From contig CASEQJ010000002.1 of assembly GCA_949290055.1 (NCBI GenBank), positions 38,010 through 102,009 on the forward strand: a stretch of 64,000 bases of DNA. The letters run 5' to 3'. Both the position numbers and the translations under genes were made by a program. Source of the DNA: an uncultured Olsenella sp. Lineage in GTDB: Bacteria; Actinomycetota; Coriobacteriia; Coriobacteriales; Atopobiaceae. The notes beneath the pieces were generated by a model, which had not been told where the DNA came from, did no database searches, and saw only the letters and a list, made by a program, of their open reading frames with translations. Positions 7,560 to 61,657 of the stretch are shown here, piece by piece; within the stretch, counting starts at the first letter, position 1; every line of letters starts with the position of its first letter.

Positions 7560-7987
7560 GCTGCCTCTAGGAAAAGCCGCCCTTGTCCAGAGGGCGCCTA
7601 GGAATCGCGGCTCTTGTCGCGTGAGGCTCTGCAAAACATGATCCTTCTTGTCCAATTGCCGAGAAAACTCGCTTTTGGGCGAGAAGAACCTGCAAGGTCC
7701 CGAATTTCTAGACGGCCGTATGACAAGGGTGCCGTTTCTTAGAAGCGCCCATGACAAGGTCGGAGATTTCTAGATCGGACGCGTTGTCCTTTTCGACGGG
7801 CGAGAAGGGCGACGCCGTCATGTCAATCTTGTTAAGTAACCCATGCGTCGTGGGTCGGACCCGCGACGTTGGAGCAAACTTTTCACTTGGCGACGGGCGG
7901 GGCATGCGCCCTGACACGGGAAGACCCGTGCCTCCGTCGGGAAAGGGCGTGACCACGCGCCAAAGCTTTGGGGGAAGGAACCCAGAC

Positions 7988-45242: not shown

Positions 45243-45670
45243 TGATTGACCAGATCACGGTTTTTCTGGAGAACGAGAAGGGCCGCATCGCGGCGCTCTG
45301 CCGCACCCTCGGCGACGCCAACATCAACATGGCGGCGCTCTCCGTGGCCGACACCACCGAGTACGGCATCGTCCGCATAATCTGCGGCGACACGAACGCC
45401 GCCCTCGCTGCGCTCGAGGCCGGCGGCTATCGCGCAATCAAGACCGAGGTCATGGCCATTGCCGTCCCGCACCAGCCGGGCGGCGCGGCCGACCTCCTCG
45501 AGAAGCTTGACGACCTCGACATCAACATCGAGTACTTCTACTGCTTCTCCACGACCGACGACCTCGCGATTCTTGCGCTCAAGATCGCCGACCCCGCGAG
45601 CGCCGCAGAGGCGAGCTGGGCCATTGAGAAGGCCGGCTTCCACGTCTTTGACCAGGACGAGGTCGAGTAG
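45242..45670 (+). CDS. ACT domain-containing protein (partner commonly found next to PaaK-like ligases)
   Basis: 142 aa with two ACT-like halves (ITVFLENEKGRIAALCRTLGDANINMAALSV...; VMAIAVPHQPGGAADLLEKLDDLDINIEY). Its start overlaps the upstream stop. Confidence 0.75.
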   Translation: MIDQITVFLENEKGRIAALCRTLGDANINMAALSVADTTEYGIVRIICGDTNAALAALEAGGYRAIKTEVMAIAVPHQPGGAADLLEKLDDLDINIEYFYCFSTTDDLAILALKIADPASAAEASWAIEKAGFHVFDQDEVE

Positions 45671-45700
45671 GGTCTCGCGCCACGACGATCTTTTTTGTCT

Positions 45701-45736
45701 GGGGCTGCCGCGTGATTGCGTGCGGCAGCCCCTTTT
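45701..45736 (+). terminator. Rho-independent terminator after the ACT gene
   Basis: GGGGCTGCCGC-loop-GCGGCAGCCCC followed by TTTT. Its 3' half is already part of repeat copy A. Confidence 0.75.
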
Positions 45737-45930
45737 CCTGTCGAGCGGGGGGCGAGTGGCGCCCGTTTTTCCCGCGAGTGGACAATTATGGAGATTCCCG
45801 TTTACTTCTGGCGGGGGAGCGGGCATACTAGCCAACGCACATTTCAGAAGGGCGCCCCCCGGCGCAGCCGAGCACATCACTTTTCAGGTTTCAGCGTGTA
45901 AGAGGTAAGGGCAAGAGACATGATCACCAA
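45722..45930 (+). repeat. Copy A of a ~210-bp duplicated non-coding leader module
   Basis: By manual alignment, the core 45790-45928 matches 49232-49370 at 129 of 139 positions without indels. A 64-nt run is identical (45861-45924 = 49303-49366). Weaker similarity extends back to 45722/49163. Confidence 0.9.
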
Positions 45931-46134
45931 CACCACCACCATATAAAACGTAATCAGTTTTCACTGTTGCCTTGGGGTGGCTCCATCTTGCGTGGACGCG
46001 CTGCTCCTTCGGCACCGGTGTGTGTTCTCGTGCGGTCCGTCGAGATCGTGGCGGACGTGCGTGCGAGGGAGGGATTCCCCAATGCGCCTGGGAAGCTATA
46101 AATTAGACACCAATCCTTCGAGAGGGGTGACGGT

Positions 46135-47796
46135 ATGGACAACGAGAAGACCGAGGCCGCGCAGGACGGAGCCGCAGAGCAGGGCGTCTCTCTGAGCAAA
46201 TTGCTCAAGCGCCTACGCGAGCAGGGAAGCATTGGCGCTGACGTCAAGTCGCCCGGGATGCACCTGATGCTCGCGGATGCCGGGCTCGTCGAGCGCGTCA
46301 CGGACGAGGAGGGCGCGAAGACCTGGCAGGTCACGGAGCTCGGCCGCAAGTGGGGCATCAGCCAGAGGCCCTCGACCGACGGGCACGGCTCGTACCCCGT
46401 GTACGATGAGCGCGGCGTCCGGAAGGTCCTTGAGCTCTTGTCGGCCGACGTCGACGGCTCGGCCTACGCTGCCGCCAGGGAGCGCGTCGCAGCCGCAGCC
46501 AAGCCCGACAAGCCCCGCTTCCCCGATTCCATCGACGACGGGAACGCGCTCTGTCGCCGCGGCGAGCGCCTCGTGCCCGACTTCGTCGAGCGCGCCGCGC
46601 CGCTCATTGGCCGCAACCTGAGCGCAGGGCCGGATCTCGACGCCCTTCCCAGCATGTCAAGTCTCTACGACCACGACCACGACCGTCCGGCCCTTCTCTT
46701 GTGCGCCAGGACGCCGTACTTCAAGGCCGGTTACTACGGCAGGGACAAGCGGGGTCGACTCCTCGAGAAGAAAAACGGCCCGTCCTGCACCGTCTCGCTT
46801 GACGCCAACCAGCTCAGGCGGGCCCGTGCGGCATATCCGGACAGCGATCTCTATGTCTATGTGCACTGGGAGCGCCTTGCCATGGGCGGCAGGCGCGTCG
46901 AGCCGCTCGAGGGCGTGTGGGTGGCACGCCTTGCCGACCTTGGGGACAAGGTCGATCAGGGCCTGCTCGCTCACTCCGGCCCCGTTGAGAGCAAGGTGCA
47001 CGACGGCGAAAGCCTTGACATTTACCTCATCAGCCTGCTCGACCCCGTCTTCACGGAGCTCTGGTCGCGCAGGGGCAAGGACGTCCTCGCCCCCATGGAG
47101 CCTGACGCGCCCGCCTCGTGCAAGCGGCTGATAGCGGAGGCGTCCATGGGAAGCCTCCGCGACGCCCTGTCCAAGGGGTGGGAGGTGCTCGAGAAGGGCG
47201 TACAGGAGATGGACTGCGACGAGAAGTGCGTCATCGCGCCGGACTTCTCGCCCAACGAGGGGGGCAATCAGGACAAGGCGAAGTACGACACGTCCCTCTC
47301 CCGTCTCTACTACTTCCTTCGCTACGGGTACGGCTATGCCTATGAGTACTACCTCATGTGGCGTGATCTGCTCGAAGACATGGACCGACAGAACCTTGGG
47401 AAGGAGAAGTTGGACGTCCTCTCGCTCGGGTGTGGCAACGGCGTCGACCTCTGGGCGCTCCGCTCTCTGTTGGCAGAGCGCGGAGAGTCCGACCGACTTA
47501 CGGGCTACGTGGGCGTTGATATTGCTGACTGGTCCGACCTCTGCTTCCCGCTCCCAGAGGGGGAGGGCTATCGGTATCGGTGGGGGTGCAGTGCCGCCGA
47601 TTACCTGGAGAGCGAAGAGGCGCGCAAGCACAGGTACCCCTGCGCGCGCGTCATCGTCCTCCCAAAGAGTCTCGGGGAGATGAGCGAGGACGAGATTAAG
47701 AGGGTTGGTGAGAGCATCTTCCAGTACAACGAGCACTGCTGGCATTACCTGTGCGTCTGCCCACCCCATGGCTACAAGGACAGGGAGGGAATCTGA
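46135..47796 (+). CDS. Hypothetical 553-aa multidomain protein with a C-terminal class-I SAM-methyltransferase-like motif
   Basis: A GAGAGGGG SD precedes the ATG. Motif I is LDVLSLGCGNGVDLWAL, followed by an acidic post-I residue (YVGVDIADW). The N-terminal ~100 aa look HTH-like, and the central ~250 aa are unrecognised. Confidence 0.7.
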   Translation: MDNEKTEAAQDGAAEQGVSLSKLLKRLREQGSIGADVKSPGMHLMLADAGLVERVTDEEGAKTWQVTELGRKWGISQRPSTDGHGSYPVYDERGVRKVLELLSADVDGSAYAAARERVAAAAKPDKPRFPDSIDDGNALCRRGERLVPDFVERAAPLIGRNLSAGPDLDALPSMSSLYDHDHDRPALLLCARTPYFKAGYYGRDKRGRLLEKKNGPSCTVSLDANQLRRARAAYPDSDLYVYVHWERLAMGGRRVEPLEGVWVARLADLGDKVDQGLLAHSGPVESKVHDGESLDIYLISLLDPVFTELWSRRGKDVLAPMEPDAPASCKRLIAEASMGSLRDALSKGWEVLEKGVQEMDCDEKCVIAPDFSPNEGGNQDKAKYDTSLSRLYYFLRYGYGYAYEYYLMWRDLLEDMDRQNLGKEKLDVLSLGCGNGVDLWALRSLLAERGESDRLTGYVGVDIADWSDLCFPLPEGEGYRYRWGCSAADYLESEEARKHRYPCARVIVLPKSLGEMSEDEIKRVGESIFQYNEHCWHYLCVCPPHGYKDREGI

Positions 47797-47811
47797 GACA
47801 ACGACCTTGCC

Positions 47812-48138
47812 ATGCGGGAGAGCGTTTCCCTCCTGCTCGAGCACGTGGGCCTCAGGGTTGGGGTCGACGACGCGATCAGGGGCGAGAAGCGCCGCGCGGA
47901 CAGGCGCATCTCCCAGCTCACCGACGAGGGCTGGTGGGGGCACCTGAGCATGGACGACGAGGATTGTCTCAAGCGGGTGCTGGGCGAGGAACTTCCCCCA
48001 TGCTGCCCGTATCACGGGGCGACGACGTGCACGTGGAAGGAGCGCGAGAAGAAGGTGCGCTGCCCGATCGAGAAGAGCCCCATCCTGCGCGGCTGGTTCC
48101 CCTGCTACCGCGTCTACTATCTCGACGGCCTGTGCTAG
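47812..48138 (+). CDS. Hypothetical Cys-rich small protein (108 aa)
   Basis: The C-terminal half reads CCPYHGATTCTWKEREKKVRCPIEKSPILRGWFPCYRVYYLDGLC (7 Cys). It starts 15 nt after the upstream stop. The SD is weak. Confidence 0.5.
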   Translation: MRESVSLLLEHVGLRVGVDDAIRGEKRRADRRISQLTDEGWWGHLSMDDEDCLKRVLGEELPPCCPYHGATTCTWKEREKKVRCPIEKSPILRGWFPCYRVYYLDGLC

Positions 48139-48165
48139 CAGCGCGCCCGCGCGAAAGGAGCGACC

Positions 48166-49113
48166 ATGATCATAAGCGCGAGCCGGCGCACGGACATACC
48201 GGCGTTCTACGCTGAGTGGTTCGCGAACCGCGTCCGCGAGGGGTTCGTGTGCGTGCGCAACCCCATGAACGCCCACCAGGTGAGTCGCGTGAGCCTCGAC
48301 CCGGCCCTTGTGGACTGCATCGTCTTCTGGACCAAGAACCCCGCTCCCATGCTCGAGCACCTCGACGCCTTCGCGGCTTACCCGTACTACTTCCAGGCCA
48401 CGCTCACCGGCTACGGCCGCGACGTCGAGGGCAACCTTCCCGACAAGCACGAGGTCCTTCTCCCCGCCATGAAGGAGCTCGCGCACAGAATCGGCCCCGA
48501 GCGCGTCGTCTGGCGCTACGACCCCATTCTCTTTAACGAGAAGTACACGCCGCAGTACCACCTGCGCGCGGTGCGCGAGATCGCGGAGGAGCTCGAGGGC
48601 TGCACGGAGAAGTGCGTCATCAGCTTCGTTGACACCTACCAGCGGAACCGCAAGAGCATTGAGACGCTCGGCGCGCGTGACGACCTGCCCTCCGAGCGGG
48701 AGTTCCGCGCCTTTGCGACCGAGCTCGCGGACACGGTGCGCGCCCACGGCATGGCGTGCGCGAGCTGCGCCGAGCGGGTGAACCTCGCCGACTGCGGCAT
48801 AAAGCACAACTGCTGCGTCGACCGCGCCCTGATCGAGCGCATTCTGGGCTGTCCCCTGGACGTCAAGAAGGACAAGACGCAGCGTCCGGAGTGCGGCTGC
48901 GTGACGAGCATTGACGTGGGCACCTACAACACCTGCCCGCACGGTTGCCGCTACTGCTACGCCAACTTCAGTCCCGAGTCCGTCGAGCGCAGCCGCGCCG
49001 CCTACGACCCGGCCTCCCCGCTTCTGTGTGATCGCCTGCGCGAGGACGACGTCGTGACGGACCGCAAGGTCAAGCGGCTCTCCTCGGGTCAAGCCACGCT
49101 GCCGTTCGCATAG
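48166..49113 (+). CDS. DUF1848 domain protein with a C-terminal CxxxCxxC cluster (radical-SAM-like)
   Basis: MIISASRRTDIPAFYAEWFANRVREGFV...IVFWTKNP is the typical DUF1848 N-terminus. The C-terminus reads ECGCVTSIDVGTYNTCPHGCRYCYAN. A strong AAAGGAG SD is present. Confidence 0.8.
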   Translation: MIISASRRTDIPAFYAEWFANRVREGFVCVRNPMNAHQVSRVSLDPALVDCIVFWTKNPAPMLEHLDAFAAYPYYFQATLTGYGRDVEGNLPDKHEVLLPAMKELAHRIGPERVVWRYDPILFNEKYTPQYHLRAVREIAEELEGCTEKCVISFVDTYQRNRKSIETLGARDDLPSEREFRAFATELADTVRAHGMACASCAERVNLADCGIKHNCCVDRALIERILGCPLDVKKDKTQRPECGCVTSIDVGTYNTCPHGCRYCYANFSPESVERSRAAYDPASPLLCDRLREDDVVTDRKVKRLSSGQATLPFA

Positions 49114-49162
49114 GGCCGCGCGCTGTCGCTCTTCCCGCCTGAGGGCCGTCGCACACGAGCGT

Positions 49163-49372
49163 GCGGCGGCTCCCTTTTCCTGCCAGACAGGGGTCGAACG
49201 GTACCCGTTTTGCCCGCGAGCGGATTTTTTTGGAGATTCCCGTTTACTTCCGGCGGGGGAGTGGGCATACTATCCACCGCGTAATTCAGAAGGGCGCCTC
49301 CGGGCGCAGCCGAGCACATCACTTTTCAGGTTTCAGCGTGTAAGAGGTAAGGGCAAGAGACATGATTACCAA
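49163..49372 (+). repeat. Copy B of the ~210-bp duplicated leader module
   Basis: See copy A. It begins in the 3' half of the terminator-like hairpin GCCGTCGCAC...GTGCGGCGGC (49145-49170). Confidence 0.9.
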
Positions 49373-49821
49373 AGAATCCATTTTCTAACTCAATAGGCTT
49401 CCATCGACGCTTCTGAGGGTCGTGCTGTGTCCCGCGCGGACGCCGAGCCCTCTCAAAAGTGCCGGTGGATTCTCATGTGGCTGCGTCGCATGAGCTGGCG
49501 TTCTTTGACAAACGAAGAGCGGGAGTGTCCCCTTGTCTCTTTTGGGTAGCCGCCTCGAGCGTGCCGTGACCCAACAACAGGAGAGCCGACGGGCGAGGAC
49601 CCTGGGAGAACAGGGGGCACGGACAGAGACCGCGGGCGTTGGTGCAGGAAAGCGCGGGAGCGGAGAGGAGGATTCGCGTGGGGCGGCGGTCCCCGGCACA
49701 AGCCCACCAACGGCCAGCAGCAATCAGAAAGCGGCAAATCACACGTCCACGGGCAAGCAGGAGCGGCAAGGGGAGCAGACGAATGGTCGGACGGCTCTCC
49801 GTCGCAGAAAGGAAGGTCAGC

Positions 49822-50718
49822 ATGACAATGCACGGTTCCGTTCTAGACGAGCGCATAGAGGGGGCGTTCTCGTTTGTCCCCACTCCCGAGCTTATCGTCG
49901 TAAGCCTGCGCATTGCGGCGGACATGCCTCTCGAGCGCTACTGCCTCGGGGGCGCCGCGCTTGCGGCATGCCAAGAGGTCATGGATTCGGACCTGGTTGG
50001 CCTTGAGGTCAAAACAAACGGTTCTCACCTGCCGTCTCAGTTGAGCTCGGTCCGCGAGGCCGTGGGCGTTGCGCTCCTGCTGGACGAGGCCTCCCAGAGC
50101 TCACGGGCTCGCGCCAAGACCCTCGCGAACCTGCGCGACCAGCTGATACGCGCCCTTCTCGCTCCGGTCGAGCGCTACGTCGAGCGACACCGCAGGGGGT
50201 GGGACCGGCGGCAGGAGGGCAGCGCCGGCTCACGCGCGAGACGGGCGTTTTGCTACGACGTGAGCATTCTCACGACGCAGCGAAGGGGGCCAAGGCCCAC
50301 CCCTCGCGAGGCTTATGCGCTGCTCTGCGCGCTCGCCTTTGCCGACGACGCGCACATTCGAGAGGCAATAGCGACCCTGGGAGGCCTCGACGGTCGCGAC
50401 GCGCTCGAGGCGCAGGCTCGCTACGAAGAACATTCGCGCTTCTTCTCCGGCTGCCAGTCCGCAAGCGCCGCGAGCGCATACAACAGCGTCGTCTATGCCG
50501 ACCATGGCGAGCCCGAGGGAATCGACGACCTCATTGAGGCGTGCGCGGGCGCGACGGAGCAGCCCGAGCCGATCTCCGGGGACACCGCGGCCGCGTTTCT
50601 CCACCTCTACCTCGAACCCATTGCGCTCATGGAGCGCTTTGGGGGAGGCTGCGCGCCCGGCGACCTAATCGGGAGCAGCCCCAACCCCACGCTCACCAAG
50701 CGAATCCTGGCGGCGTGA
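49822..50718 (+). CDS. Hypothetical protein (298 aa)
   Basis: An AAGGAAGG SD lies 6 nt before ATG 49822 (MTMHGSVLDERIEG...). No recognised domain. An in-frame TTG at 49639 would add a very basic extension, which I consider unlikely. Confidence 0.55.
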   Translation: MTMHGSVLDERIEGAFSFVPTPELIVVSLRIAADMPLERYCLGGAALAACQEVMDSDLVGLEVKTNGSHLPSQLSSVREAVGVALLLDEASQSSRARAKTLANLRDQLIRALLAPVERYVERHRRGWDRRQEGSAGSRARRAFCYDVSILTTQRRGPRPTPREAYALLCALAFADDAHIREAIATLGGLDGRDALEAQARYEEHSRFFSGCQSASAASAYNSVVYADHGEPEGIDDLIEACAGATEQPEPISGDTAAAFLHLYLEPIALMERFGGGCAPGDLIGSSPNPTLTKRILAA

Positions 50719-50761
50719 CCCGTCGCCCCTCTCGCTCGTTCACCCATACGTCGAAGGGATC

Positions 50762-52126
50762 ATGCACATGCACAACACCACCGTCGTCACCGAATCCACC
50801 CGCGCCCCCTACCGCGGCTCGACGATCGTCGGCCGCGACCGCTCCCTCGAGACCGACTCTTTTCTGACGGGACTCAACGACAACGTGCTCGTCATAGGTC
50901 CCTCTGGCGCGGGCAAGACGCGCCACGTGCTCAAGCCCAACCTGCTCCAGACGGGACCGAGCTTCATCGTGCTCGACACGAAGGGCACACTCTGTGCCGA
51001 CATGGCGCCGGCGCTCGTGCGGGCGGGCTATACCGTCGAGCGGCTCGACTTCGCCGGCGTCTGCGACCGGCCCGCGTCGCTTCCCGAGGGCGTGAGAAAC
51101 GTCGGGTACGACCCGCTCGTCTTCATTCGGCGCAACGCTGACGGCGGCGTGAACCAGCAGGACGTCATCTCCGTCGCCAGCGCGCTCTGCCCCGTCGAGA
51201 ACGGTGACGAGCCGTTCTGGGACCACGCCGCCTCGAACCTGCTCACCGCGCTCATCGCCTACGTCGTCGAGGAGCTGCCCCAGGAGGAGCAGACCTTCGC
51301 CGCGGTGATCGAGCTCGACGAGCACCTGCACGACGGCGCGACGTTTCGCCTGCTCGAGGAACTCGAGCTCACAAGTCCTCGGAGCCTCGCGGGCTCCACG
51401 TACCGCCGCTACGCCGCCACGCGGGAGTCCGAGCGGACGAACGCGAGCATAGTCGGCATAATCGCCGAGAAGCTCAGGTGCCTGGGCTTTGACGGGGCAC
51501 TTAACCTCTACACTGCCCCCGATCGGGTGGACTTTGCCCGCTACGGCCACGAGCGTCGCGCTCTGTTCGTGACGATCAGCGACGTCGACCGCTCGCTCGA
51601 CTCGCTCACGAGCCTGTTCGTCGCCCAGGCGTTCGGCGCGCTCATACGCGAGGCCAATCGCTGCCCGGGCGGTCGGCTGCCCCAGCCTGTGCGCCTCTTC
51701 CTTGACGACTTCGCGAACCTCTACATAGAGAACATCGACGACATCCTCGCCGTCGTTCGCAGCCGAGAGATCTGGTGCACGCTTCTGCTGCAGTCGGTGA
51801 ACCAGCTCGAGGCGCGCTACGGCCGCTCGCGTGCCATGTCGATCATGGGCAACTGCGACACGCAGCTCGTCCTGGGCTTCCAGGACCTCGACACGGCGCA
51901 CTGCTTCTCCGAGCGCGCGGACCGCATGCCCAAGACCCTGCTCGAGATGAGCCCGGAGCGCTCCTGGCTCTTCGTGCGCGGTCATGCCGCCGAGGAGATC
52001 GAGTCCTACCACCTCGAGGAGCACCCGCGCTACTTCGAGCTCCGCGAGGGCGAGGGCGCGGGCCTCGGGCGAGAAGAGCCCGCGCCCGCCTCGAGCGACT
52101 TCGACGACCCCGAGCTCCCACGCTAG
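50762..52126 (+). CDS. VirD4/TraG-like type IV coupling-protein-family ATPase lacking TM segments
   Basis: Walker A VIGPSGAGKTRHVLKPNLL, Walker B VRLFLDDFANL, and the T4CP-typical SREIWCTLLLQSVNQLEARYG. There is no hydrophobic N-terminal anchor. The start is 50762 or, with better SD spacing, 50768. Confidence 0.75.
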   Translation: MHMHNTTVVTESTRAPYRGSTIVGRDRSLETDSFLTGLNDNVLVIGPSGAGKTRHVLKPNLLQTGPSFIVLDTKGTLCADMAPALVRAGYTVERLDFAGVCDRPASLPEGVRNVGYDPLVFIRRNADGGVNQQDVISVASALCPVENGDEPFWDHAASNLLTALIAYVVEELPQEEQTFAAVIELDEHLHDGATFRLLEELELTSPRSLAGSTYRRYAATRESERTNASIVGIIAEKLRCLGFDGALNLYTAPDRVDFARYGHERRALFVTISDVDRSLDSLTSLFVAQAFGALIREANRCPGGRLPQPVRLFLDDFANLYIENIDDILAVVRSREIWCTLLLQSVNQLEARYGRSRAMSIMGNCDTQLVLGFQDLDTAHCFSERADRMPKTLLEMSPERSWLFVRGHAAEEIESYHLEEHPRYFELREGEGAGLGREEPAPASSDFDDPELPR

Positions 52127-52166
52127 CGCCTCTTCACGTCAGGAACCCCAACAGAAGGGACATCTC

Positions 52167-52763
52167 ATGAGCCACCAGATCCTCAGCCCCCACACCATGC
52201 GCGAGACCTCGCGCGGTATCTCGCTCACGAGCATTTACGACGAGATGCTCGCTCGCCGTGAGCTCTCCGTGACCGGCGAGGTGACGCAGGCCATGGCGTT
52301 CGACGTCTGCCAGCAGCTGCTGCAGCTCGAGCATACCGACCCCGAGGCAGAGGTCACGCTCTACGTGGCGAGCCCGGGCGGCAGCGTCTCGGCCGGCCTC
52401 GCCATAGTGGACACCATGCGCACGATCTCCTGCCCCGTGCGCACCGTGTGCCTGGACACGGCCGCGTCCATGGGTGCGGTCATTTTCGTTTGTGGCGACC
52501 GCCGGGAAATGTTCCCGCACGCCGAGCTCATGATCCACGACCCGCTGATCCAGAACGCGGGCGGCTCGGCGCTCTCCGTGCAGGAAACGAGCCGCCGCCT
52601 CATGGGCCTGCGCCGCACCCTCAGCCAGATCCTGGCCGAGCGCAGCGGCCTCTCCGTCAAGCGCGTGCAGACGCTCACCGCGCGCGACACGTTCCTCACC
52701 GCCGAGCGTGCCTGCGAGCTGGGCTTTGCCGACGCGATCGTGAGCCCGCGCAAGGCTGCGTAG
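52167..52763 (+). CDS. ClpP-fold serine protease family protein
   Basis: 198 aa with YVASPGGSV, the catalytic Ser context DTAASMGAVIF, the His context LMIHDP, and the Asp context LTARDTFLTAERACELGFADAIV. Confidence 0.8.
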   Translation: MSHQILSPHTMRETSRGISLTSIYDEMLARRELSVTGEVTQAMAFDVCQQLLQLEHTDPEAEVTLYVASPGGSVSAGLAIVDTMRTISCPVRTVCLDTAASMGAVIFVCGDRREMFPHAELMIHDPLIQNAGGSALSVQETSRRLMGLRRTLSQILAERSGLSVKRVQTLTARDTFLTAERACELGFADAIVSPRKAA

Positions 52764-52798
52764 GGACGCACATGTTCCCAGAGGAAGGAGGTGTGGAA

Positions 52799-53101
52799 AT
52801 GGCAGAGAACGACCAGCCGACGTTTTTTGAGGCGAACCCCACGTACGCGACGCTCGTCTTCGCGGCGCAGGACGCCCGCGAGCGCCTCGTGGAGGCGCTC
52901 TCCGGTGAGCTCGACCGGCGCCTGACGCTGGAGGGCGACCCCGAGTACGAGCGCTACGGGCGTCCCAGCAACGACGAGTACCTCGCTGACTACGTTCACG
53001 CGCTGTGGCGCGTTCGGGAGTACGAGAACGAGCACCCGGACGAGGCTCGCGCCTGCGCGGAGCGGTTCGGCGCTGCGGCGCGCGTGGAGGGAATCGAGTG
53101 A
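52799..53101 (+). CDS. Hypothetical small acidic protein (100 aa)
   Basis: A strong GGAAGGAGG SD is present. Starts MAENDQPTFFEANPTYATLVF. No recognised domain. Confidence 0.55.
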   Translation: MAENDQPTFFEANPTYATLVFAAQDARERLVEALSGELDRRLTLEGDPEYERYGRPSNDEYLADYVHALWRVREYENEHPDEARACAERFGAAARVEGIE

Positions 53102-53197
53102 TTGGAGGAAGCCAAGCGACCTGAGCACGACCAACCAGGCATGCAAGCGTGAACGAGGTTGACGGCGCAGCCGTCTCAGAGAGAAAGAGGGAGTTGC

Positions 53198-54148
53198 ATG
53201 AACGGCACCACTATTCCTTTCGAGAAGAACGACGAGGTCAAGGGCGGGCTCTCAGCAGCCGCCGTCAGGCGCTATGAGCCCCTGGTCACGAACGGGACGA
53301 TTCGCTCGTTCAATGGCTTTCTTGCCGGCCTGTGCTGCCCCGAGGGAGAGATCGGGACGTTTGCCCCTGGCGTGAGGTACCTCTGCGAGCGCCTGGACGG
53401 GGCGAGTCACGCCCTGCTCGAAAGGAGCGGGTTCTTCTCGCTCGAGACGGAGGAGGCGCGCGCCGGGCTCTTGGAAAGCTCGCCGGAGGCGACCCTCGGC
53501 ATGGGTCTGCAGACGTCCTGTCTCGTGCTTGGTACGCAGGTCAAGAGCTCCATGGAGAAGTGCGAAGCCGTGCGTGCAGAGTGGCTCGCCGCAGACGACC
53601 TTGACGAAGTCGACGACTTCAACGACGAGGACGAAAACCTCGAGTGCCTTCCCGTCAGCGAGCTCTCGGTCATTGTCGGCCTCGTTCCGGACGGAATGGC
53701 GCAGGCGCTTCTCGCCGCCTTCCACACCATCGTGCACGACCCCGCGCTCGAGGCGCTTCTCGACGTCATGGTGTCGCTTATCGACGGGGACATTGAAAAG
53801 GAGGAGGGCGGCTGGTTCATAGAGACCGACGTCGCCCTTGGCGTTGCGTTCATGTGCGAGCAGTTCCTCCGCTTCGCCGAAAGCCACCGCGGCGAGCAGA
53901 GTCTGGTTGAAATCAGCGAGGACCGCCTTAACCTCCGCGACGGGGGAGACCCGGTGCTTGACGGCCTCTACGACCATGTGGGGGACGACGGCTGGTTTGC
54001 CTCGCTTTCCGAGGACGAGCGTCGCCGCCTCGAGGCGTGGTCGAGCGGCGAGGGGTTCGAGGCGTGCTTCGCCCTGACGCTCCTCACGATCGGCATGCTC
54101 GCGGGCAACGTCCGTGACAACGCCGCCGTTCGGGTGGTCAACCGCTAG
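53198..54148 (+). CDS. Hypothetical protein (316 aa) with an acidic central patch
   Basis: An AGAGGGAG SD precedes ATG 53198. It has a D/E-rich central segment (AADDLDEVDDFNDEDENLE). No recognised domain. Confidence 0.55.
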   Translation: MNGTTIPFEKNDEVKGGLSAAAVRRYEPLVTNGTIRSFNGFLAGLCCPEGEIGTFAPGVRYLCERLDGASHALLERSGFFSLETEEARAGLLESSPEATLGMGLQTSCLVLGTQVKSSMEKCEAVRAEWLAADDLDEVDDFNDEDENLECLPVSELSVIVGLVPDGMAQALLAAFHTIVHDPALEALLDVMVSLIDGDIEKEEGGWFIETDVALGVAFMCEQFLRFAESHRGEQSLVEISEDRLNLRDGGDPVLDGLYDHVGDDGWFASLSEDERRRLEAWSSGEGFEACFALTLLTIGMLAGNVRDNAAVRVVNR

Positions 54149-54225
54149 CGGCGCCCTCTCCGGGGCGGGTGGGCCCCGCCCCGGATTCGGTGCGTCCGAT
54201 CAACGCAACGTCAAGGGAGCCGCGA

Positions 54226-56664
54226 ATGGAAATCGGAGAGATCCTCGACCGCTACGCCGTCTGCGCCGACGTGCTCGGTCGAAAGAAGGACTCGAGGAGG
54301 TCCAGGGACCCAAACGCCTACCCAGCCTACGAGCAGGAGGGCTACTCGACGGCGTGGTTCTTCAAGGAGGCGGGCGACGGCGCGGGCCTGAACGACCTCA
54401 CGCGCGCCTTTCTCGGTGACGCCTCGGCGCGCTCGCGCCTTCGCTTTGGCGCGGCGGAGGCGGCCTCGTTCGAGGGTCACCTGCTCGAGGGTGACCACCC
54501 GCTCAACGCCAGCCAGCGCCGGGCCGTTGCCCGTGCGCTCGAGAGCGACGTCTCGCTCGTGCAGGGGCCTCCGGGCACCGGCAAGACCAAGACGATCCTC
54601 AATATGGTCTCGTGCATGCTCGCGCGCGGGGCGACGGTCGCCGTGGTCGCCAACAACGGCAAGGCGATCGACAACGTTCGCGAGCAGGTCGAGGGGTGGG
54701 GACCGGGCTCGGGTGCGGGTCCCAACCAGCGGCGCATGAACGAGTGCTATGCCCGTCTCGGCAGGAAGGACCTTCGACGGGGGTGGGTCAGGCGCCACCC
54801 GGACGCCCCCGAGTGCCTCCGCTTTGCCGATTGCGGCTGGGAGCCCACCGTGCGCGCCGAGGTCTTTCTCGCCAGCTATCCCTTTGTGACGAGCACGATC
54901 CACTCGCTCAAGAAGTGCTTCGCCGACGGCCGCAGCCACCAGTACGACTACGTGATCATGGACGAGGCGTCGCAGTGCAGCCCGCTTCTGGGCCTCATTG
55001 CCATGAGCGCGGCGCGCCACCTCGTGCTCGTGGGGGACGACGAGCAGCTTCCGCCGATTCACTCCGAGGAGCAGGACCTCGAGCTGCGTTCCGCCCTCGC
55101 CGAGCGGGGGCTCGACGAGATCGGGGACGCGCGCTATGCGCTCGCCGACGCCGAGACGGGCACCGGCAGGAGCGTCCTTCTCGCCATGAGGCTCGCCCTC
55201 GGCGACGACCTGCCGAGCACGCTTTTGAACGAGCACTACCGCTGCCACCCGGGAATCATCGGCTTCTGCACCGAGGCGGTGTACGCGCCCGTGGGAAAGG
55301 AGCTGCAGGTTCGCACCCCGGACGACGGCCGGGGCGTGAGGGTCCCGATTCGCGTGCGGTGGTTCGAGGGGAACTACTGCGAGCGCGTGCGCCCCGAGGA
55401 CGGGGGCGAGCGGGGGTACCACAAGCTTTCGCGCACCAACGCGCGGCAGCTCGAGGTCTTCATGCGCGAGGAGTGGCCGGAGCTGCGGCGACGCATGGGG
55501 GAGCGCCGCCCGCCGAGCGTCTGCGTGCTCTCGCCGTATCGCGGGCTGCTCGCAGAGCTGGGGGAGCGCCTTGCTCGTGAGGGCGTCGACCCCGCGGAGA
55601 CGACCGAGGGGACGGGAGGCGACCCGCTCGTGGCTCCGGAGGTTCCCGCGCTCACCATTCACAAGTCCCAGGGTCAGGAGTTTGACATGGTCTACCTGCT
55701 CCCGGGTGAGGACGGTTCGTGGGAGTGGCCCTGGACGGAGGCGAGGTCGCTGATCAACGTGGCCGTCTCGCGGGCGAGGCGCGAGCTCGTGATTGTGGCG
55801 TCGTCGTGCCTCATGGGCGTCGACGTTCAGGTGGCGCTCGTGGGGGAGGACCGCGTGGTCGGACCCTACCAGCGCGACATGAGCGAGGAGGAGCGGGAGC
55901 GCCGCAAGCGGCGCGAGCTGTACCTGCAAAAGCTCGTCGACTACGTGCGCGAGCGCAACGACCCCGCACGCGACTCCGACGCGCCGAGCGGTTTCCCGGA
56001 GAGCTCGTATGACTACGGGTTCCACCGCACGGCTCTGCGTTCCGTCTTCGACGTCGTGGCGCGCCTTCGCAGGGAGGCGCCGCATAGGTGGGGCGCGGAC
56101 GACTGGGCCACCGAGCGGGCCCTCGAGCGCGCGTTCGAGGGGGTCGACCTCGCGGGGCGCGGGCTCGGCGTCAGGCGCGGCGTCAGGCTCGCGGAGTGTT
56201 TCGACGCGAGCGACGAGCGGCTCGCAGGTGCGGGCGACCCGGCGCGCGTGAGGGAGTTTCTCGCGACGGACGCGCACTTCGACTTTGTGGTCCATGAGCT
56301 GGCAACGGGGCGCATGGTGCTCGCCATCGAGGTCGACGGCGCGCCGCACCGCACGCTCAAGGGCAAGGCCACCGAGCAAAACTGGGGGGAGAAGGTCCGT
56401 GAGCTGAGGCTCAGGCGGGAGAACGACGCGTTGAAGGACGCCATGGCTCGGGCGCTCGGCGCTCGGGTGCTCGCCACCAACCGACGCGCGGAGCTCGAGC
56501 GCTGCGAGGTGGAGCGGCCCGCGTTCACCCTGCTGCGCCTGCCCACCGACGGTTCGTGCGCCTTCGAGGTCGAGGCCCTGTTCGACGGAGCCCCCGCCGG
56601 CGCGGCAGACGACTTCGTGACAATTGAGGAGCTGCTCGACGAGACGGGGGGACGGAGGTTCTGA
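54226..56664 (+). CDS. Upf1/DNA2-like SF1 helicase fused to a C-terminal Vsr/DUF559-like endonuclease domain
   Basis: Helicase motifs: LVQGPPGTGKT (I), YVIMDEASQ (II), LVLVGDDEQLPP (III), YRCHP, TIHKSQGQEFD (V) and NVAVSRARRELVIV (VI). C-terminal DFVVHELATGRMVLAIEVDGAPHR (D...ExDG..H) is nuclease-like. The start is at MEIGEILDRY. Confidence 0.85.
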   Translation: MEIGEILDRYAVCADVLGRKKDSRRSRDPNAYPAYEQEGYSTAWFFKEAGDGAGLNDLTRAFLGDASARSRLRFGAAEAASFEGHLLEGDHPLNASQRRAVARALESDVSLVQGPPGTGKTKTILNMVSCMLARGATVAVVANNGKAIDNVREQVEGWGPGSGAGPNQRRMNECYARLGRKDLRRGWVRRHPDAPECLRFADCGWEPTVRAEVFLASYPFVTSTIHSLKKCFADGRSHQYDYVIMDEASQCSPLLGLIAMSAARHLVLVGDDEQLPPIHSEEQDLELRSALAERGLDEIGDARYALADAETGTGRSVLLAMRLALGDDLPSTLLNEHYRCHPGIIGFCTEAVYAPVGKELQVRTPDDGRGVRVPIRVRWFEGNYCERVRPEDGGERGYHKLSRTNARQLEVFMREEWPELRRRMGERRPPSVCVLSPYRGLLAELGERLAREGVDPAETTEGTGGDPLVAPEVPALTIHKSQGQEFDMVYLLPGEDGSWEWPWTEARSLINVAVSRARRELVIVASSCLMGVDVQVALVGEDRVVGPYQRDMSEEERERRKRRELYLQKLVDYVRERNDPARDSDAPSGFPESSYDYGFHRTALRSVFDVVARLRREAPHRWGADDWATERALERAFEGVDLAGRGLGVRRGVRLAECFDASDERLAGAGDPARVREFLATDAHFDFVVHELATGRMVLAIEVDGAPHRTLKGKATEQNWGEKVRELRLRRENDALKDAMARALGARVLATNRRAELERCEVERPAFTLLRLPTDGSCAFEVEALFDGAPAGAADDFVTIEELLDETGGRRF

Positions 56665-58025: not shown

Positions 58026-58715
58026 TCAGACGTTGTAGCTGAGTGCAACGACTAGCGGGTTGTCAGGGTCGATGGCCGTGTCCGGCCCGTAGAGGGCAAC
58101 GCTCAAGATCCAGTGGGTCTCAGTGCCCATGAACGTCCCGGGACCGTCGTAGGTGACAATCTTTGTCTCGGGGTCGGCAACGGTCACCTCCGTGGCGTTG
58201 CTGATCTCCCCCAGTCCGAGCGCCTCGGCCACCTGCTGCGCGTGGGCGTCGAACTCCTCGGGATCGATCGCTGGGCCCTGGAAGGTGACGCTGAATCTGC
58301 TTGGGGTCGTGCCCTGCGCGAGGTCGTTAGCCGTGGGCTTGTCCGTCTCGCCCTCGACGGCGGGGTCGTTCACCGAGAGGCTGACGTATACCGTCTCGCT
58401 GTAGCCCTCCAGGGGGTTGTCGGAGGGCTTTCCCTCGTAGGAGGCTGCAAACACGTTGGTCCCGTCCTGCGTCGTGACGAGGGACTGCTCGAGCGGCTCG
58501 AAGCCCAGGAGCTCGAGGTCGCTCGCGATCTCGGACACGGGGCGCTCGTAGAAGGCGGCTTCCTGCCAGTTGGTCATGGCGGGCTCCGCCTCCGGCTCGG
58601 CCTGCTCGACGGCGGCCTCGTCCTGCGTCGCGTTGGTGACCGGCGCCTGGCCGCAGCCCACGAGCAGCGCCGTCGAGAGGACGAGCGCAGCCACCACGGT
58701 CTTGGTGAACCTCAT
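58026..58715 (-). CDS. Hypothetical lipoprotein (paralogue 1)
   Basis: Lipobox MRFTKTVVAALVLSTALLVGC. A GGAGGAAACC SD is present. It shares WQE(A/G)AFYERPV.EI.SDL.LLGF with 59272-59976. Confidence 0.7.
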   Translation of the reverse strand: MRFTKTVVAALVLSTALLVGCGQAPVTNATQDEAAVEQAEPEAEPAMTNWQEAAFYERPVSEIASDLELLGFEPLEQSLVTTQDGTNVFAASYEGKPSDNPLEGYSETVYVSLSVNDPAVEGETDKPTANDLAQGTTPSRFSVTFQGPAIDPEEFDAHAQQVAEALGLGEISNATEVTVADPETKIVTYDGPGTFMGTETHWILSVALYGPDTAIDPDNPLVVALSYNV

Positions 58716-58975
58716 GGTTTCCTCCGTTCTTGTCGTCCTGAAACACCCTTTGCCTTTGTTGGATTTCATTCTCTGGGAGCGTCAGGTAGCTGAAAGTCGG
58801 GACTTCGGTAGGTGGGCGCCAACGCTCCCTTAACGCTTCCCTAAGACGCCGGAAACGCAGGTGGACACATTTGTGAAGCCTCTGCGTAGGAGAGATAATG
58901 ACTTTGTCAACCCTCTTTCCACGAACGGTTGGAATGGGTATAACGAACGTGTCAAAACCCGAAAGGAGGGAAGGC

Positions 58976-59271: not shown

Positions 59272-59976
59272 TCACGCCTCGGGCGCGACAAAGCAGCTGA
59301 ACGAGACCAGAAGCGGCGCCTCCGGGTTCCGGGCGGTCTCGGCGCCCTCGCAGATCACCCCGATCGACCAGGTGGCCCGCTCGCCCATGAGCGTTCCCTC
59401 GCCGGTGAAGGAGCCGGTCATGGTCCCCGTTCCCAGGGAGTCCTCGACGCTGGAGGAGGTGAACTCTCCCAGCCCGAGCCCGTCGGCGAGCTCCCGGGCG
59501 AGCGCCTCGTACTCGGAGGCGTCGACCGCAGGGCAGGAGAGGCTGAAGGCGTAGCAGCTGAGACGCGCGTCCTCGGCGAGGTCCTCGACGGACGAGCCGT
59601 CCGTGCCCTCGCGGAAGACGGGGTCGTCGACCTGTAGGGTGACGTCGACGACGCCGTCCGAGCCCTCGAGCGGGAGCTCGGCGGGCGTGCCCCGCAGCCC
59701 AATCGAGAACAGGTCGTACCCCTGGATCTGGTCATGGTTCTGGTAGGAGACGTCGAACCCAAGGAGCTGCAGGTCGCTCACGATCTCGGGGACGGGGCGC
59801 TCGTAGAAGGCGCCCTCCTGCCACCGCTCCATGGCGGGCTGCTCCGCCGGCGAGGCCCGCTCCTCCAAGACGGTCGCCCGCGGCGTCGCGTCGTCGCTGG
59901 CGGGTGCCTGCGCGCAGCCCGTCAGAAGCGCCGTCGCAAGGCACAGCGCCGCTACGGTTGCTCCCGTAAACCTCAT
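59272..59976 (-). CDS. Hypothetical lipoprotein (paralogue 2)
   Basis: Lipobox MRFTGATVAALCLATALLTGC. It lies immediately downstream of the M20 peptidase gene on the same strand. Confidence 0.7.
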   Translation of the reverse strand: MRFTGATVAALCLATALLTGCAQAPASDDATPRATVLEERASPAEQPAMERWQEGAFYERPVPEIVSDLQLLGFDVSYQNHDQIQGYDLFSIGLRGTPAELPLEGSDGVVDVTLQVDDPVFREGTDGSSVEDLAEDARLSCYAFSLSCPAVDASEYEALARELADGLGLGEFTSSSVEDSLGTGTMTGSFTGEGTLMGERATWSIGVICEGAETARNPEAPLLVSFSCFVAPEA

Positions 59977-59980
59977 GGTC

Positions 59981-61177
59981 TCACCCGTCCTTCTCGACAT
60001 GCGGCGCCTCCCGTTCGTCCCTCAGCTGGGTCGCGTGATCCAGCATGAGGGCGAGAATGACGGCGAGGCCGCGACGCAGACTGTCCTTCTCGATCCACTC
60101 CTCGCGCGTGTGCAGCAGGTCGCCCTCGACGGTGCCCACGGTGTGGGCGGGAATGCCCAGCGAGAGGGGTATGTTGGCGTCGGTGGAGGACTCCTGGTGG
60201 TGAATCTTCTTCACGCCGCCGAGCTCGCGCAGGACCTCGTCGGTGCGGGCTATGAGCGCGGCCTGGCCCTCGGGCACGTGCTCGCCGGAGGCGGGGCGCC
60301 GGCCAATGAGCTGCACGTCGATGCGGGTGCCGGCCTTGAGGTGCTCCTCCACGAGCACCACGAACTTCCCGTACATCTCCTCGAGGCACTCCTCGGACGC
60401 CGAGCGGTACTCCACGAGCACGCTCGCGTCCTCGGCGATCGAGTTCACCGTGGTGCCGCCGACGAAGCGTCCCACGTTGATCGTGGTCTTGGCGCGCGTG
60501 GGCAGCTCGAGCGCGTAGAGGTCCTCAATGAAGCTGCAGAGCGCCTCTATTGCGTTGTCGCGCCCGAAGTTCTCCCAGGAGTGGCCGCCCTCGGTGTGGC
60601 ACTTCACGCGCCAGCGGTGGCTGCCCACGGCGGAGACCACGTGCATGCCGAGGTAGAGGTCAAAGCTCGTGAACTCGCGCACCTGTCCGTCGTAGTGGCG
60701 GAAGAGCTCGCGCGTGCCAGCGAGGTTGCCGAGGCCCTCCTCGCAGGAGTTGGCCACCACGAGCAGGCGCCGGTCAAGCGGCACGCGCTCGCGCAGCAGG
60801 TAGCGCGCCGCGAGGAGCAGTCCCACGAGGTTGGCCGTGTCGTCGCCGACACCCGGTGCCAGAAGGCGCGTCGTGCTCTCGGCGAGCGGCAGCGGCTCGG
60901 TGTCGGGGAAGACCACGTCGGTGTGGGCGGCAAAGACGGCGATTCCGTCGTCGTCCGCGGGGCCGGGCAGGCTCAAGATCACGTTCTTGGCGTCGTCGAC
61001 GCGCACGGCGCCCACGGGCGCGCCCTGCGCAAGCAGCCAGTCGCGAATGAACTCGGCGCGCCGCTCCTCGTGGCCGGACGGGGCCGGAATCTGCGCGAGC
61101 GTGCGCAGGAGCTCGAGCTCCTCCTCGTAGCACTCGTCGGCATATGCCCGCGCGATGCGCCCGATCTTCTCGTCCAC
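59981..61177 (-). CDS. M20 family metallopeptidase
   Basis: FAAHTDVVFP (H-x-D metal ligands), ANSCEEGLGN (catalytic/metal Glu pair), ~400 aa. Confidence 0.8.
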   Translation of the reverse strand: MDEKIGRIARAYADECYEEELELLRTLAQIPAPSGHEERRAEFIRDWLLAQGAPVGAVRVDDAKNVILSLPGPADDDGIAVFAAHTDVVFPDTEPLPLAESTTRLLAPGVGDDTANLVGLLLAARYLLRERVPLDRRLLVVANSCEEGLGNLAGTRELFRHYDGQVREFTSFDLYLGMHVVSAVGSHRWRVKCHTEGGHSWENFGRDNAIEALCSFIEDLYALELPTRAKTTINVGRFVGGTTVNSIAEDASVLVEYRSASEECLEEMYGKFVVLVEEHLKAGTRIDVQLIGRRPASGEHVPEGQAALIARTDEVLRELGGVKKIHHQESSTDANIPLSLGIPAHTVGTVEGDLLHTREEWIEKDSLRRGLAVILALMLDHATQLRDEREAPHVEKDG

Positions 61178-61440
61178 CGTGCCTCCCTTCCTCGCCTCTA
61201 GCGTATCGCAGCTGGCTGCCGGCGGGCGCTCGATTTAGGCGGTCGGGCGAATCCGGCGGATAACGCGCTCGATCAAGCACAACATTCTATATGCGCAGGT
61301 GAAAATAACGCGCTTGTACGATTGAGCGCATTATTATGTGCGGCGGCGCGGGCGGGCGAGAAGAACGCGCAGCCCCGCATGTTTCAGGTTTGTTTTTCGC
61401 CCTGTGCGCCGCGGGTCCGCCGTGCTAGGCTACCCACACA

Positions 61441-61599
61441 GATAGAGGAGCGGACACGAAGAGCCGTGGGGGAGCCGGCAGGCACAGATCCCCGGGGAGG
61501 CGAGGTCCGCCGAACTGTCGCGTCGGGCGCGGCGCGGCGGTGGGCCCGCGGGAAAGACCCTCGGGACTGTCTGCGAGAAGAACTCGCAGGTGCGCTATC
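61441..61599 (+). promoter_or_regulatory. Lysine riboswitch (L-box) in the lysA leader
   Basis: P1 pairs GATAG...CTATC. The conserved blocks are AGAGGAGCG (consensus AGAGGCGC), GGCGAGGTCCGCCGAAC (consensus ...CGCCGAAG), and GGGACTGTCT followed by the hairpin GCGAG-AAGAA-CTCGC and GGTGCGCTATC. Lysine biosynthesis genes lie downstream. Confidence 0.8.
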
Positions 61600-61657
61600 C
61601 TTGCCGGACGCACGTCCGCCCCGGGGCCGCGCACCTGCACGGCGAGCGAGGGGTGTC

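Follow-up and report, generated by a model that had tools for sequence, protein, structure and literature searches.

A leader with a short upstream open reading frame heads variable operons in islands of gut Coriobacteriia and probably serves in cassette exchange

Why would two unrelated gene cassettes that lie side by side be headed by almost the same non-coding sequence? We asked this of a 64-kb stretch of contig CASEQJ010000002.1 from an uncultured Olsenella sp. (hereafter the window, whose coordinates we use throughout), in which a leader module of about 200 nt occurs twice, once before each of two cassettes. Copy A lies 3' of a phenylacetate-CoA ligase gene and an ACT-domain gene and precedes cassette 1; copy B precedes cassette 2, 3' of which lie tatA and then a LysR gene. 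A first-pass annotation had offered two alternative accounts of this repeat, a shared promoter with a cis-regulatory leader or a recombination scar at a cassette boundary. Comparison of the window with public and metagenome loci (L001-L032; the window copies are winA and winB) supports the view that both accounts hold simultaneously. Judged by its sequence, the module is an undescribed family of leaders containing an upstream open reading frame (uORF), which heads variable operons in islands of gut Coriobacteriia.

We first describe the repeat itself, whose features are collected in Table 1. A recount of copy A (45790-45928) against copy B (49232-49370) gave 129 of 139 identical positions with zero indels, exactly as annotated, and we also reproduced the 64-nt stretch of perfect identity (45861-45924, the same as 49303-49366) and the three TTTCAG words of copy A (45842, 45882 and 45889). 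The ten differences between the copies had all been placed within 45809-45860; their number is correct, and one of them sits outside that interval, at 45925. Two others, at 45857 and 45860, fall in the loop of a GC hairpin, as had been claimed. A repeat finder returned the pair 45730-45930 and 49172-49372 at 87% identity. The duplication, put at about 210 bp, is real and extends farther 5' than described, as the repeat unit already starts within the 3' half of a terminator hairpin lying upstream (45701-45732 and 49143-49172), where the alignment places GCGTGCGGCAGCCCCTTTTCCTG in both copies. Two occurrences of a 47-nt core were counted in the window; 100 shuffles gave an expectation of 0. The G+C content of the window is 66.6%.

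The block is not confined to these two places in one genome; such confinement is what the annotation had named as speaking against its proposal. The 24-mer TTTCAGGTTTCAGCGTGTAAGAGG, which is unchanged in both window copies and in L001-L005 and L009 and near-invariant in every variant, was found in four metagenome contigs, and we obtained further copies from contigs encoding relatives of the neighbouring proteins; the source names of the VirD4-like relatives are Enorma, Collinsella, Olsenella, Thermophilibacter and Coriobacteriia. In a profile search of all loci collected, every occurrence of the module lay on the coding strand, ahead of an operon that runs in the same direction; an island has up to three copies (L020). 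The block precedes at least seven unrelated first genes, and the leaders run for 107-635 nt before the first gene. These first genes are the 553-aa gene of cassette 1 (winA), the 298/307/313-aa gene of an ATPase-protease trio (winB, L008 and L011), an SSB gene (L001, L004, L005, L009 and L020), a 241-aa gene (L002), a 528-546-aa gene (L005, L009 and L020), a helicase-phosphoribosyltransferase gene (L008) and SSB-DprA (L020).

The core of the family is a near-invariant CCGAGCACATCA-N2-3-TTCAGGTTTCAGCGTGTAAGAGGTAAGGG, with the start codon 6-14 nt farther 3'. This block is invariant though its flanks are unrelated or ~60-80% identical and its chromosomal sites differ. The promoter regions are unrelated across lineages, yet each contains an AT-rich hexamer pair, and a hairpin of 4-6 bp stands just 5' of the block in every family member, with a lineage-specific sequence (stems GCGCC/GGCGC, CCGC/GCGG, GCTC/GAGC and CCTTG/CAAGG).

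Searches of general collections gave no name to this element. The 24-mer was absent from 185,579 GTDB species-representative genomes (one per species) and from viral contigs, and BLAST of the 181-nt module segment 45780-45960 gave no plasmid or phage match. The Rfam scan that the first-pass annotation had suggested, run with release 15 at the gathering threshold, yielded in the window only a lysine riboswitch elsewhere and no family for the block, and an E-value scan of 45600-49900 gave two chance-level matches only, both outside the block. As to the possibility that the block is the end of a known mobile element, no match was found among known mobile-element ends, Rfam families, plasmids or phages. 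A gapped second pattern had a single match, inside a coding sequence of a Pyrinomonadaceae metagenome-assembled genome (L006), which we set aside as a chance match.

The most telling part of the module is the short reading frame behind the block. Both mini-ORFs read in the first-pass annotation, MITNTTTI-stop at 45920-45946 and MITKESIF-stop at 49362-49388, were confirmed. The eight-codon alleles that we collected are MITNTTTI, MITNTIII, MITKESIF, MTTKESIF, MTSKESIF, MITIITNN, MITIISNN, MIANTTNS, MSSNQSNK (GTG start; L005), MSSNQFNK, MSNTRIIL and MTTTTFLI; MTTISNTTI has nine codons and MGKTI five. The length is exactly eight codons in 6 of 7 independent lineages despite their unrelated sequences, and ANN codons make up 43 of the 54 uORF sense codons as compared to 20.7% in the genes of the window. 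Shuffled sequences give eight codons at a rate of ~0.04 per lineage, so that the length has P ~5e-7 (conditional on the first lineage). For the codon bias P = 3e-20; both values are upper-bound impressions because the lineages share ancestry. The distance from start to stop is fixed at 24 nt while that from block to stop varies between 27 and 39 nt, which indicates that the ORF is conserved rather than a fixed spacing of RNA motifs.

The composition of the frame points the same way. Adenine occupies the first codon position in 43 of 54 codons, the second in 12 and the third in 10, and cytosine occupies the third position in 35, a periodicity that is in frame with the start codon. Closely related alleles vary mainly at the second codon position (ACC/ATC/AAC/AGC) or synonymously. 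Every allele has an ATG or GTG behind a GGAG-like motif, and among ~14 alleles we counted zero start-codon losses and zero premature stops. In uORF A every codon is ANN and there is zero G past the ATG; counted from the start codon, a stretch of 45 nt has 3 G in copy A and 5 G in copy B and ranks among the lowest 0.1% of windows. From the conserved length, the ANN codons, the in-frame periodicity and the near-absence of G, we consider it very likely that the mini-ORF is translated. What is conserved is its codon class (ANN), its frame and its length, unlike the peptide sequence, which changes. The recurrence of the module, the conserved ORF length and the codon periodicity together support the earlier proposal of a shared promoter with a uORF-type leader.

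The second proposal, that the two direct repeats would permit precise loss of cassette 1, was assessed by strain comparison, in which contigs from public assemblies encoding the exact ACT-domain protein were aligned to the window. Both cassettes are present in the window, L025 and L030, whereas in L023, L024, L026, L027, L028, L031 and L032 cassette 2 stands behind a single leader. In the empty site of L029 the ACT gene is followed directly by tatA, and an extra leader copy lies 3' of tatA. The single leaders are mosaics of copies A and B with differing crossover points (near 45815-45820 in L031; near 45750 in L026, L027 and L028). The leader of L032 is of the copy-A type at all diagnostic positions up to the 64-nt block and of the copy-B type from the uORF onward, and so reads as the exact product of recombination between A and B. 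As the crossovers are variable and a recombinase is absent, these events point to general homologous recombination. Elsewhere, island homology likewise ends just 3' of the module (L001, L002, L004 and L008). The ACT-flanked strains with one leader and then cassette 2, and the L032 mosaic, bear out the proposed precise loss, and it is highly probable that the module provides the recombination homology for cassette gain and loss.

Two further observations were made on these loci. A public Logan contig (L007; 3438 nt) contains cassette 1 alone and breaks off at the identical 64-nt blocks; we considered it as an excised circle and rejected this, as its length equals the 3378 nt that separate the identical blocks plus 2 x 30 nt, which is that of a k=31 graph break. 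The ACT-tatA spacer of L029 (950-1075) contains two copies of a ~50-nt palindromic element (GGTTCACAGCTTCCGGACGCTT...GAACGACCGGAAGCTGTG), and the leader copy 3' of tatA in that locus has a 9-codon uORF.

Beyond the uORF, most long leaders contain a box resembling BoxA 120-190 nt past the uORF stop, usually behind a hairpin. In relatives this distal box reads TCTTTTGACAACCGCAGAGCGG, CCTTGACAACCGCATAGCGG or GCTCCTTGACAGCCGCATACC (in the window, GTTCTTTGACAAACGAAGAGCGG), and in half of the lineages its 5' half is poorer (TAGCTTGACA). The window sequence GTTCTTTGACA at 49500-49510 matches the gamma-proteobacterial BoxA consensus GYTCTTTAANA (PMC5725501) at 10 of 11 positions. Perfect matches to GYTCYTT[GA]ANA number 8 in the 237 kb of sequence collected, and 4 of the 8 fall within these leaders. 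When a position weight matrix was derived from only the distal boxes, the top score in the window was 29, at the box of leader B, and only two positions of the 64 kb reached a score of 8.

The same matrix placed its second-best match exactly on the uORF stop in L011 (TCATCTGACAACGCAATAGG, 8.2) and in one of the copies of L020 (L020-3; 7.8). The uORF-stop region of L008, CATCTAACAATTTCATAG, resembles the boxA-spacer of the E. coli rrn operons, ugcucuuuaacaauuua (PMC2724277). Copy B reads TAACTCAATAGG at its uORF stop (49386-49397). We know of no precedent for a BoxA-like copy that overlaps the stop codon of a uORF. In mycobacteria the rrn leader contains TTTGAGAACTCAATAGTG, and GAACUCAAUAG is a binding sequence of NusA. 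Binding of boxC by M. tuberculosis NusA has been reported, with AUA being critical (PMC2724277).

At its 3' end, distal leader B (433 nt) has a GC hairpin and a CAGCATAGAAAGGA-type Shine-Dalgarno sequence just before the first gene (49790-49816), a layout also present in L004 (~1423-1470) and L011 (~8405-8445). As this layout stands before unrelated genes (SSB in L004, the 313-aa gene in L011 and the 298-aa gene in the window), the leader seems to end in a further reusable module.

From these features we propose, with moderate confidence, that the module acts in cis on expression or its regulation, as a leader whose uORF is translated, and doubles as a recombination handle. The head of a cassette would consist, in order, of an insulating terminator (a role we predict for the one upstream of copy A at 45701-45738), a sigma-70-type promoter, a 5' stem-loop, a ribosome landing pad, the uORF and a long untranslated leader. 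Transcription would start ~25-35 nt 5' of the block; ribosomes would load at the double Shine-Dalgarno sequence of the unstructured block and translate the G-poor, ANN-rich uORF (Ile, Thr, Asn, Ser and Lys codons). How many of the polymerases traverse the long untranslated leader would then depend on ribosome occupancy of the uORF and its stop region. The uORF stop of several lineages lies inside a BoxA/BoxC-like motif. Nus-factor antitermination signals and ribosome occupancy would jointly determine the balance of read-through against premature termination, which is probably Rho-dependent. Cassette expression would in this way respond to the state of translation, as with toiL. We put forward Rho/Nus gating specifically only as a tentative possibility. 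A more elaborate reading makes the uORF, with its stop codon embedded in a BoxA/BoxC-like Nus-factor site, a codon-class-specific translation sensor (ANN; Ile, Thr, Asn, Lys and Ser-AGY tRNAs) that gates Nus antitermination, alongside use of the module as a cassette-shuffling handle; phage, toxins or starvation that deplete or damage those tRNAs could cause ribosomes to stall or linger there and so turn conflict operons on. We judge this reading improbable.

Known systems provide a guide to this proposal. The E. coli toiL uORF has eight codons and lies 139 nt 5' of topAI, the toxin gene of a toxin-antitoxin operon (topAI-yjhQP). It acts as a sensor of ribosome stalling, through which premature Rho-dependent termination is controlled; in its proposed logic, stalling in the uORF relieves repression and this termination (PMC12121999). 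The leaders described here are like that of topAI-yjhQP in having an eight-codon uORF in a long leader, more than 100 nt before a potentially toxic accessory operon, and like tnaC and toiL in that the short uORF stands in a long leader with a C-rich, G-poor unstructured tract. They differ from toiL in having no sequence similarity to it, in conserving only length and codon class where the ToiL peptide is conserved, and in lacking a conserved counterpart of the defined structure that occludes the ribosome-binding site in toiL. BoxA and the Nus factors act beyond rRNA operons, as documented for suhB (PMC5725501). Leader B and its relatives resemble the rrn and lambda nut leaders (PMC2724277, PMC5725501) in the order of a hairpin and then a GTTCTTTGACA-type box, in an ..AUAG tail past the box that is like the NusA-binding AUA region, and in being the long untranslated leader of a long operon. 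They differ in that the distal box lies outside the interval first annotated, is absent from copy A and has a poorer 5' half in half of the lineages, in that a second box overlaps the uORF stop, and in that binding of NusB/NusE is here putative. The family resembles toiL/tnaC-type uORF control and BoxA leaders in logic, without shared sequence.

Several observations weigh against the proposed leader function, in addition to the shared ancestry of the lineages mentioned above. The promoter of the window copies, which was annotated with the correct sequence and position (TTTACT-N17-CATACT, 45801-45829), is weak at 8/12 to the E. coli consensus and was not called by the promoter scan; relatives have a stronger promoter at the equivalent place, for example TTGACG-16-CATAAT in L005 (10/12). 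One lineage has a uORF of five codons and one a uORF of nine. We found no conserved terminator/antiterminator pair 3' of the uORF, and a hairpin (with a short T-run) 10-20 nt past its stop occurs in some lineages only. Copy A is without a distal BoxA-like box, and the motif at its stop codon is degenerate. Relatives of cassette 2 in Olsenella and Thermophilibacter keep the distal box and have no recognisable uORF. The likeness of the leader boxes to the actinobacterial rrn BoxA is a putative one. Alternatively, the TTGACA of the distal box may be a -35 element. Finally, TATAAAT at 46097-46103, 32 nt 5' of the start of the 553-aa gene, is a possible second promoter, which may make cassette 1 partly independent of leader A. 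On the distal TTGACA as an internal promoter, we found no -10 element behind it, the promoter scan was silent and the uORF-stop motif has no TTGACA, and this candidate was rejected.

The absence of structure bears on the alternatives. RNAalifold found no conserved pairing in the block (consensus energy -1.7 kcal/mol), and both window leaders fold no better than shuffles (z-scores 0.28 and 0.02); as there is no conserved fold, conservation is at the level of primary sequence. STAB-SD and the ermC-type stabilisers of Bacillus are the model for one alternative, in which the module is a constitutive 5' mRNA stabiliser or translation-standby site whose loaded ribosomes shield the leader from 5'-exonuclease or Rho with no sensing. 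The hairpin near the 5' end in all variants, the conserved double Shine-Dalgarno sequence, the long leaders and the failure to find a switch-like structure would all suit such a role, which leaves unexplained the restriction to A-starting codons, the fixed length of eight codons and the invariant 30 nt 5' of the Shine-Dalgarno sequence (CCGAGCACATCA...TTTCAGGTTTCAG). We consider this alternative unlikely.

A passive scar or cassette boundary, in which the repeat is recent or gene-converted and has no role in expression, would account for the mosaic single leaders, for the presence or absence of cassette 1 and for a perfect 64-nt stretch within 87% flanks that resembles a conversion tract. It is very unlikely given that the block is invariant at other chromosomal sites among diverged or unrelated flanks, that ORF length, start, Shine-Dalgarno sequence and codon class are kept while the peptide changes, and that the next operon always runs in the direction of the element.

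We also give little probability to a classical Thr/Ile ribosome-mediated attenuator of the thr/ilv type. The likeness lies in a short translated leader, here an eight-codon ORF behind a Shine-Dalgarno sequence, rich in Thr and Ile codons before an operon; the peptides MITNTTTI, MTTTTFLI and MITIITNN are rich in Thr, Ile and Asn, and the hairpin with T-run past the stop in some lineages could be seen in the same light. The conserved terminator and antiterminator alternatives of such attenuators are missing, eight codons is very short for the mechanism, a codon run is absent from copy B (MITKESIF) and from L005 (MSSNQSNK), and the downstream genes are not biosynthetic, as they encode DUF1848, VirD4-like, ClpP-like, helicase and SSB proteins.

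There is likewise only a slight chance that the block is a DNA or RNA site for a trans-acting factor, either a repressor roadblock or an RNA-binding protein, with an incidental mini-ORF. Conservation of primary sequence in the absence of structure, the repeated TTTCAG words and the S1/cold-shock-type protein (Pfam S1CSD-TOTE-2) encoded by relatives of cassette 2 could be read in this way, whereas the block has no palindrome, no regulator gene is common to all islands and the ORF statistics would not be expected of an incidental ORF.

A mobile-element end, an integron-like attC site, an oriT or single-strand promoter, or a reverse-transcriptase template RNA is extremely improbable, as the cassette-like organisation, the VirD4-like and SSB genes nearby and the DUF1848 match in PADLOC are set against the lack of an integrase, transposase, relaxase or reverse transcriptase in 45.7-56.7 kb, the lack of inverted repeats or a stable fold, the lack of matches in plasmid, phage and viral collections, and crossovers that are spread across the repeat as in general recombination. 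Like integron arrays and defence hotspots, the islands have tandem variable cassettes at one spot and a repeated boundary that mediates gain and loss. They differ in that the boundary is a promoter-leader 5' of each cassette, with neither a folded attC (no conserved or stable fold was found) nor an integrase among the island genes, and in that exchange looks like homologous recombination with variable crossovers. The pattern of an insertion sequence or miniature inverted-repeat transposable element was also not seen, with only two copies in the 64 kb, both direct, and the 24-mer absent from the species-representative genomes and from viral, plasmid and phage collections. Two specific candidates were rejected: the template RNA of a reverse-transcriptase defence system, suggested by a match to the RTasDUF1848 model, which takes its name from an association with reverse transcriptases (no reverse transcriptase, and the leader heads unrelated cassettes), and a conjugative leading region, single-strand promoter or oriT (minimal islands without transfer genes, no long hairpin, and tandem copies).

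Table 1. Coordinates of the leader modules, cassettes and related features (window coordinates unless a locus is named)
Feature	Coordinates	Strand	Remarks
Terminator hairpin and T-run 3' of ACT-domain gene	45701-45738	+	14-bp stem, TTTTCC tail
Promoter-like TTTACT-N17-CATACT, copy A	45801-45829	+	8/12 to E. coli consensus
5' stem-loop GCGCC-CCCC-GGCGC, copy A	45852-45865	+	Both A/B differences in loop
Conserved unstructured block CCGAGCACATCA...TTTCAGGTTTCAGCGTGTAAGAGGTAAGGG, copy A	45868-45911	+	Tandem Shine-Dalgarno at 3' end
uORF A (MITNTTTI)	45920-45946	+	ATG ATC ACC AAC ACC ACC ACC ATA TAA
Distal leader A	45947-46134	+	188 nt, without BoxA-like box
Cassette 1	46135-49113	+	553-aa protein, 108-aa protein (47812-48138), DUF1848 protein (48166-49113)
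Terminator-like hairpin and T-run, start of repeat copy B	49143-49178	+	
Promoter-like TTTACT-N17-CATACT, copy B	49243-49271	+	
5' stem-loop GCGCC-TCCG-GGCGC, copy B	49294-49307	+	
Conserved block, copy B	49310-49353	+	Same as copy A
uORF B and stop region	49362-49397	+	MITKESIF (49362-49388), stop running into AACTCAATAGG (49387-49397), BoxA/BoxC-like tail
Hairpin and BoxA-like box, distal leader B	49472-49522	+	CTCATG-N11-CATGAG (49472-49494), then GTTCTTTGACAAACGAAGAGCGG (49500-49522)
Hairpin GACGG-CTCT-CCGTC and AAAGGAAGG Shine-Dalgarno	49790-49821	+	Immediately 5' of cassette 2 first gene
Cassette 2	49822-56664	+	298-aa protein, VirD4-like ATPase, ClpP-like protease, 100-aa protein, 316-aa protein, SF1 helicase
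Trio islands	window 49822-56664; L011 8446-11338; L013 5725-9752; L016 8578-15236		
Repeated hairpin copies	L020 18241-18269, 18271-18299, 18618-18646; L001 2550-2578		

The two cassettes form an island of 11 kb (45.7-56.7 kb), in or adjoining which we found no integrase, transposase, relaxase, reverse transcriptase or tRNA gene. The true start of the 298-aa gene was placed at 49822 from tblastn and public gene calls. The 553-aa protein of cassette 1 gave no matches, and PDB sequence searches with the 553-, 298- and 316-aa proteins gave no matches. PADLOC returned weak matches only (mad8 and Mko-like), with DUF1848 matching RTasDUF1848. Some headed cassettes have DarT-NADAR neighbours. It is L016, a relative of cassette 2, that encodes the protein with the S1CSD-TOTE-2 domain; the cassette helicase is 44% identical to the helicase of the system bearing this domain, and the 316-aa protein has no detectable relation to the L016 protein. 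A search of the accessible literature on 'TOTE conflict systems', the name carried by the Pfam domain, found nothing. The headed cassettes look like conflict or defence systems, as predicted from their gene content.

One gene trio recurs as a small island at varied chromosomal sites in Coriobacteriia (Table 1). It encodes a protein of ~256-313 aa together with a VirD4-like ATPase and a ClpP-like protease; an SF1 helicase gene frequently accompanies it. This trio looks like an uncharacterised conflict system, a prediction from sequence. In L011, tRNA-Thr(UGU) at 7632-7706 and two direct copies of ~81 nt (7687-7767 and 7877-7957) lie upstream of a minimal trio; the copies consist of the tRNA 3' end and downstream sequence (region 7632-7957) and look like an att-like scar of tRNA integration. 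The islands of L008, L009 and L020 sit between yacP (NYN) and tuf. A hairpin, GAGACAGTTGTGCC(A/G)GGTCAATCTGTCTC, whose stem is 7 bp long and whose 15-nt loop is conserved, recurs between cassettes and just 5' of L001-type leaders.

Other features of the window lie outside the island. The lysine riboswitch (61435-61605; RF00168, 66.4 bits) is inside a listed ORF with Orn/DAP/Arg decarboxylase domains (61322-62905), so that the real start of this gene must be downstream of the riboswitch. Diverged paralogues of ~750-780 aa at 1165-3414 and 19117-21471 share stretches of 71-87% nucleotide identity (families D1, D7 and D18); their P-loop region we take, by eye only, to read like FeoB. On the minus strand, 58026-58769 and 59272-60000 are neighbouring paralogues with 42% amino-acid identity and no Pfam matches, which contain a 110-nt repeat (58498-58607 and 59753-59862, 81%).

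What is known of how accessory defence and conflict operons are kept quiet yet inducible, and of how their cassettes pass between strains, comes largely from model bacteria. The module is a compact case in abundant human-gut Actinobacteria, as one element of ~200 nt would combine expression signals, a probable translation-sensing uORF and homology for the gain and loss of cassettes. Its conservation of a codon class, the BoxA-like motif around the stop codon in some lineages and its double role as exchange homology are unusual. Should the overlap of the stop codon with BoxA prove functional, ribosome occupancy would be tied directly to Nus antitermination, a coupling that to our knowledge is undescribed. 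Even otherwise, the module represents a new conserved leader family and an annotation marker for variable islands of Coriobacteriia.

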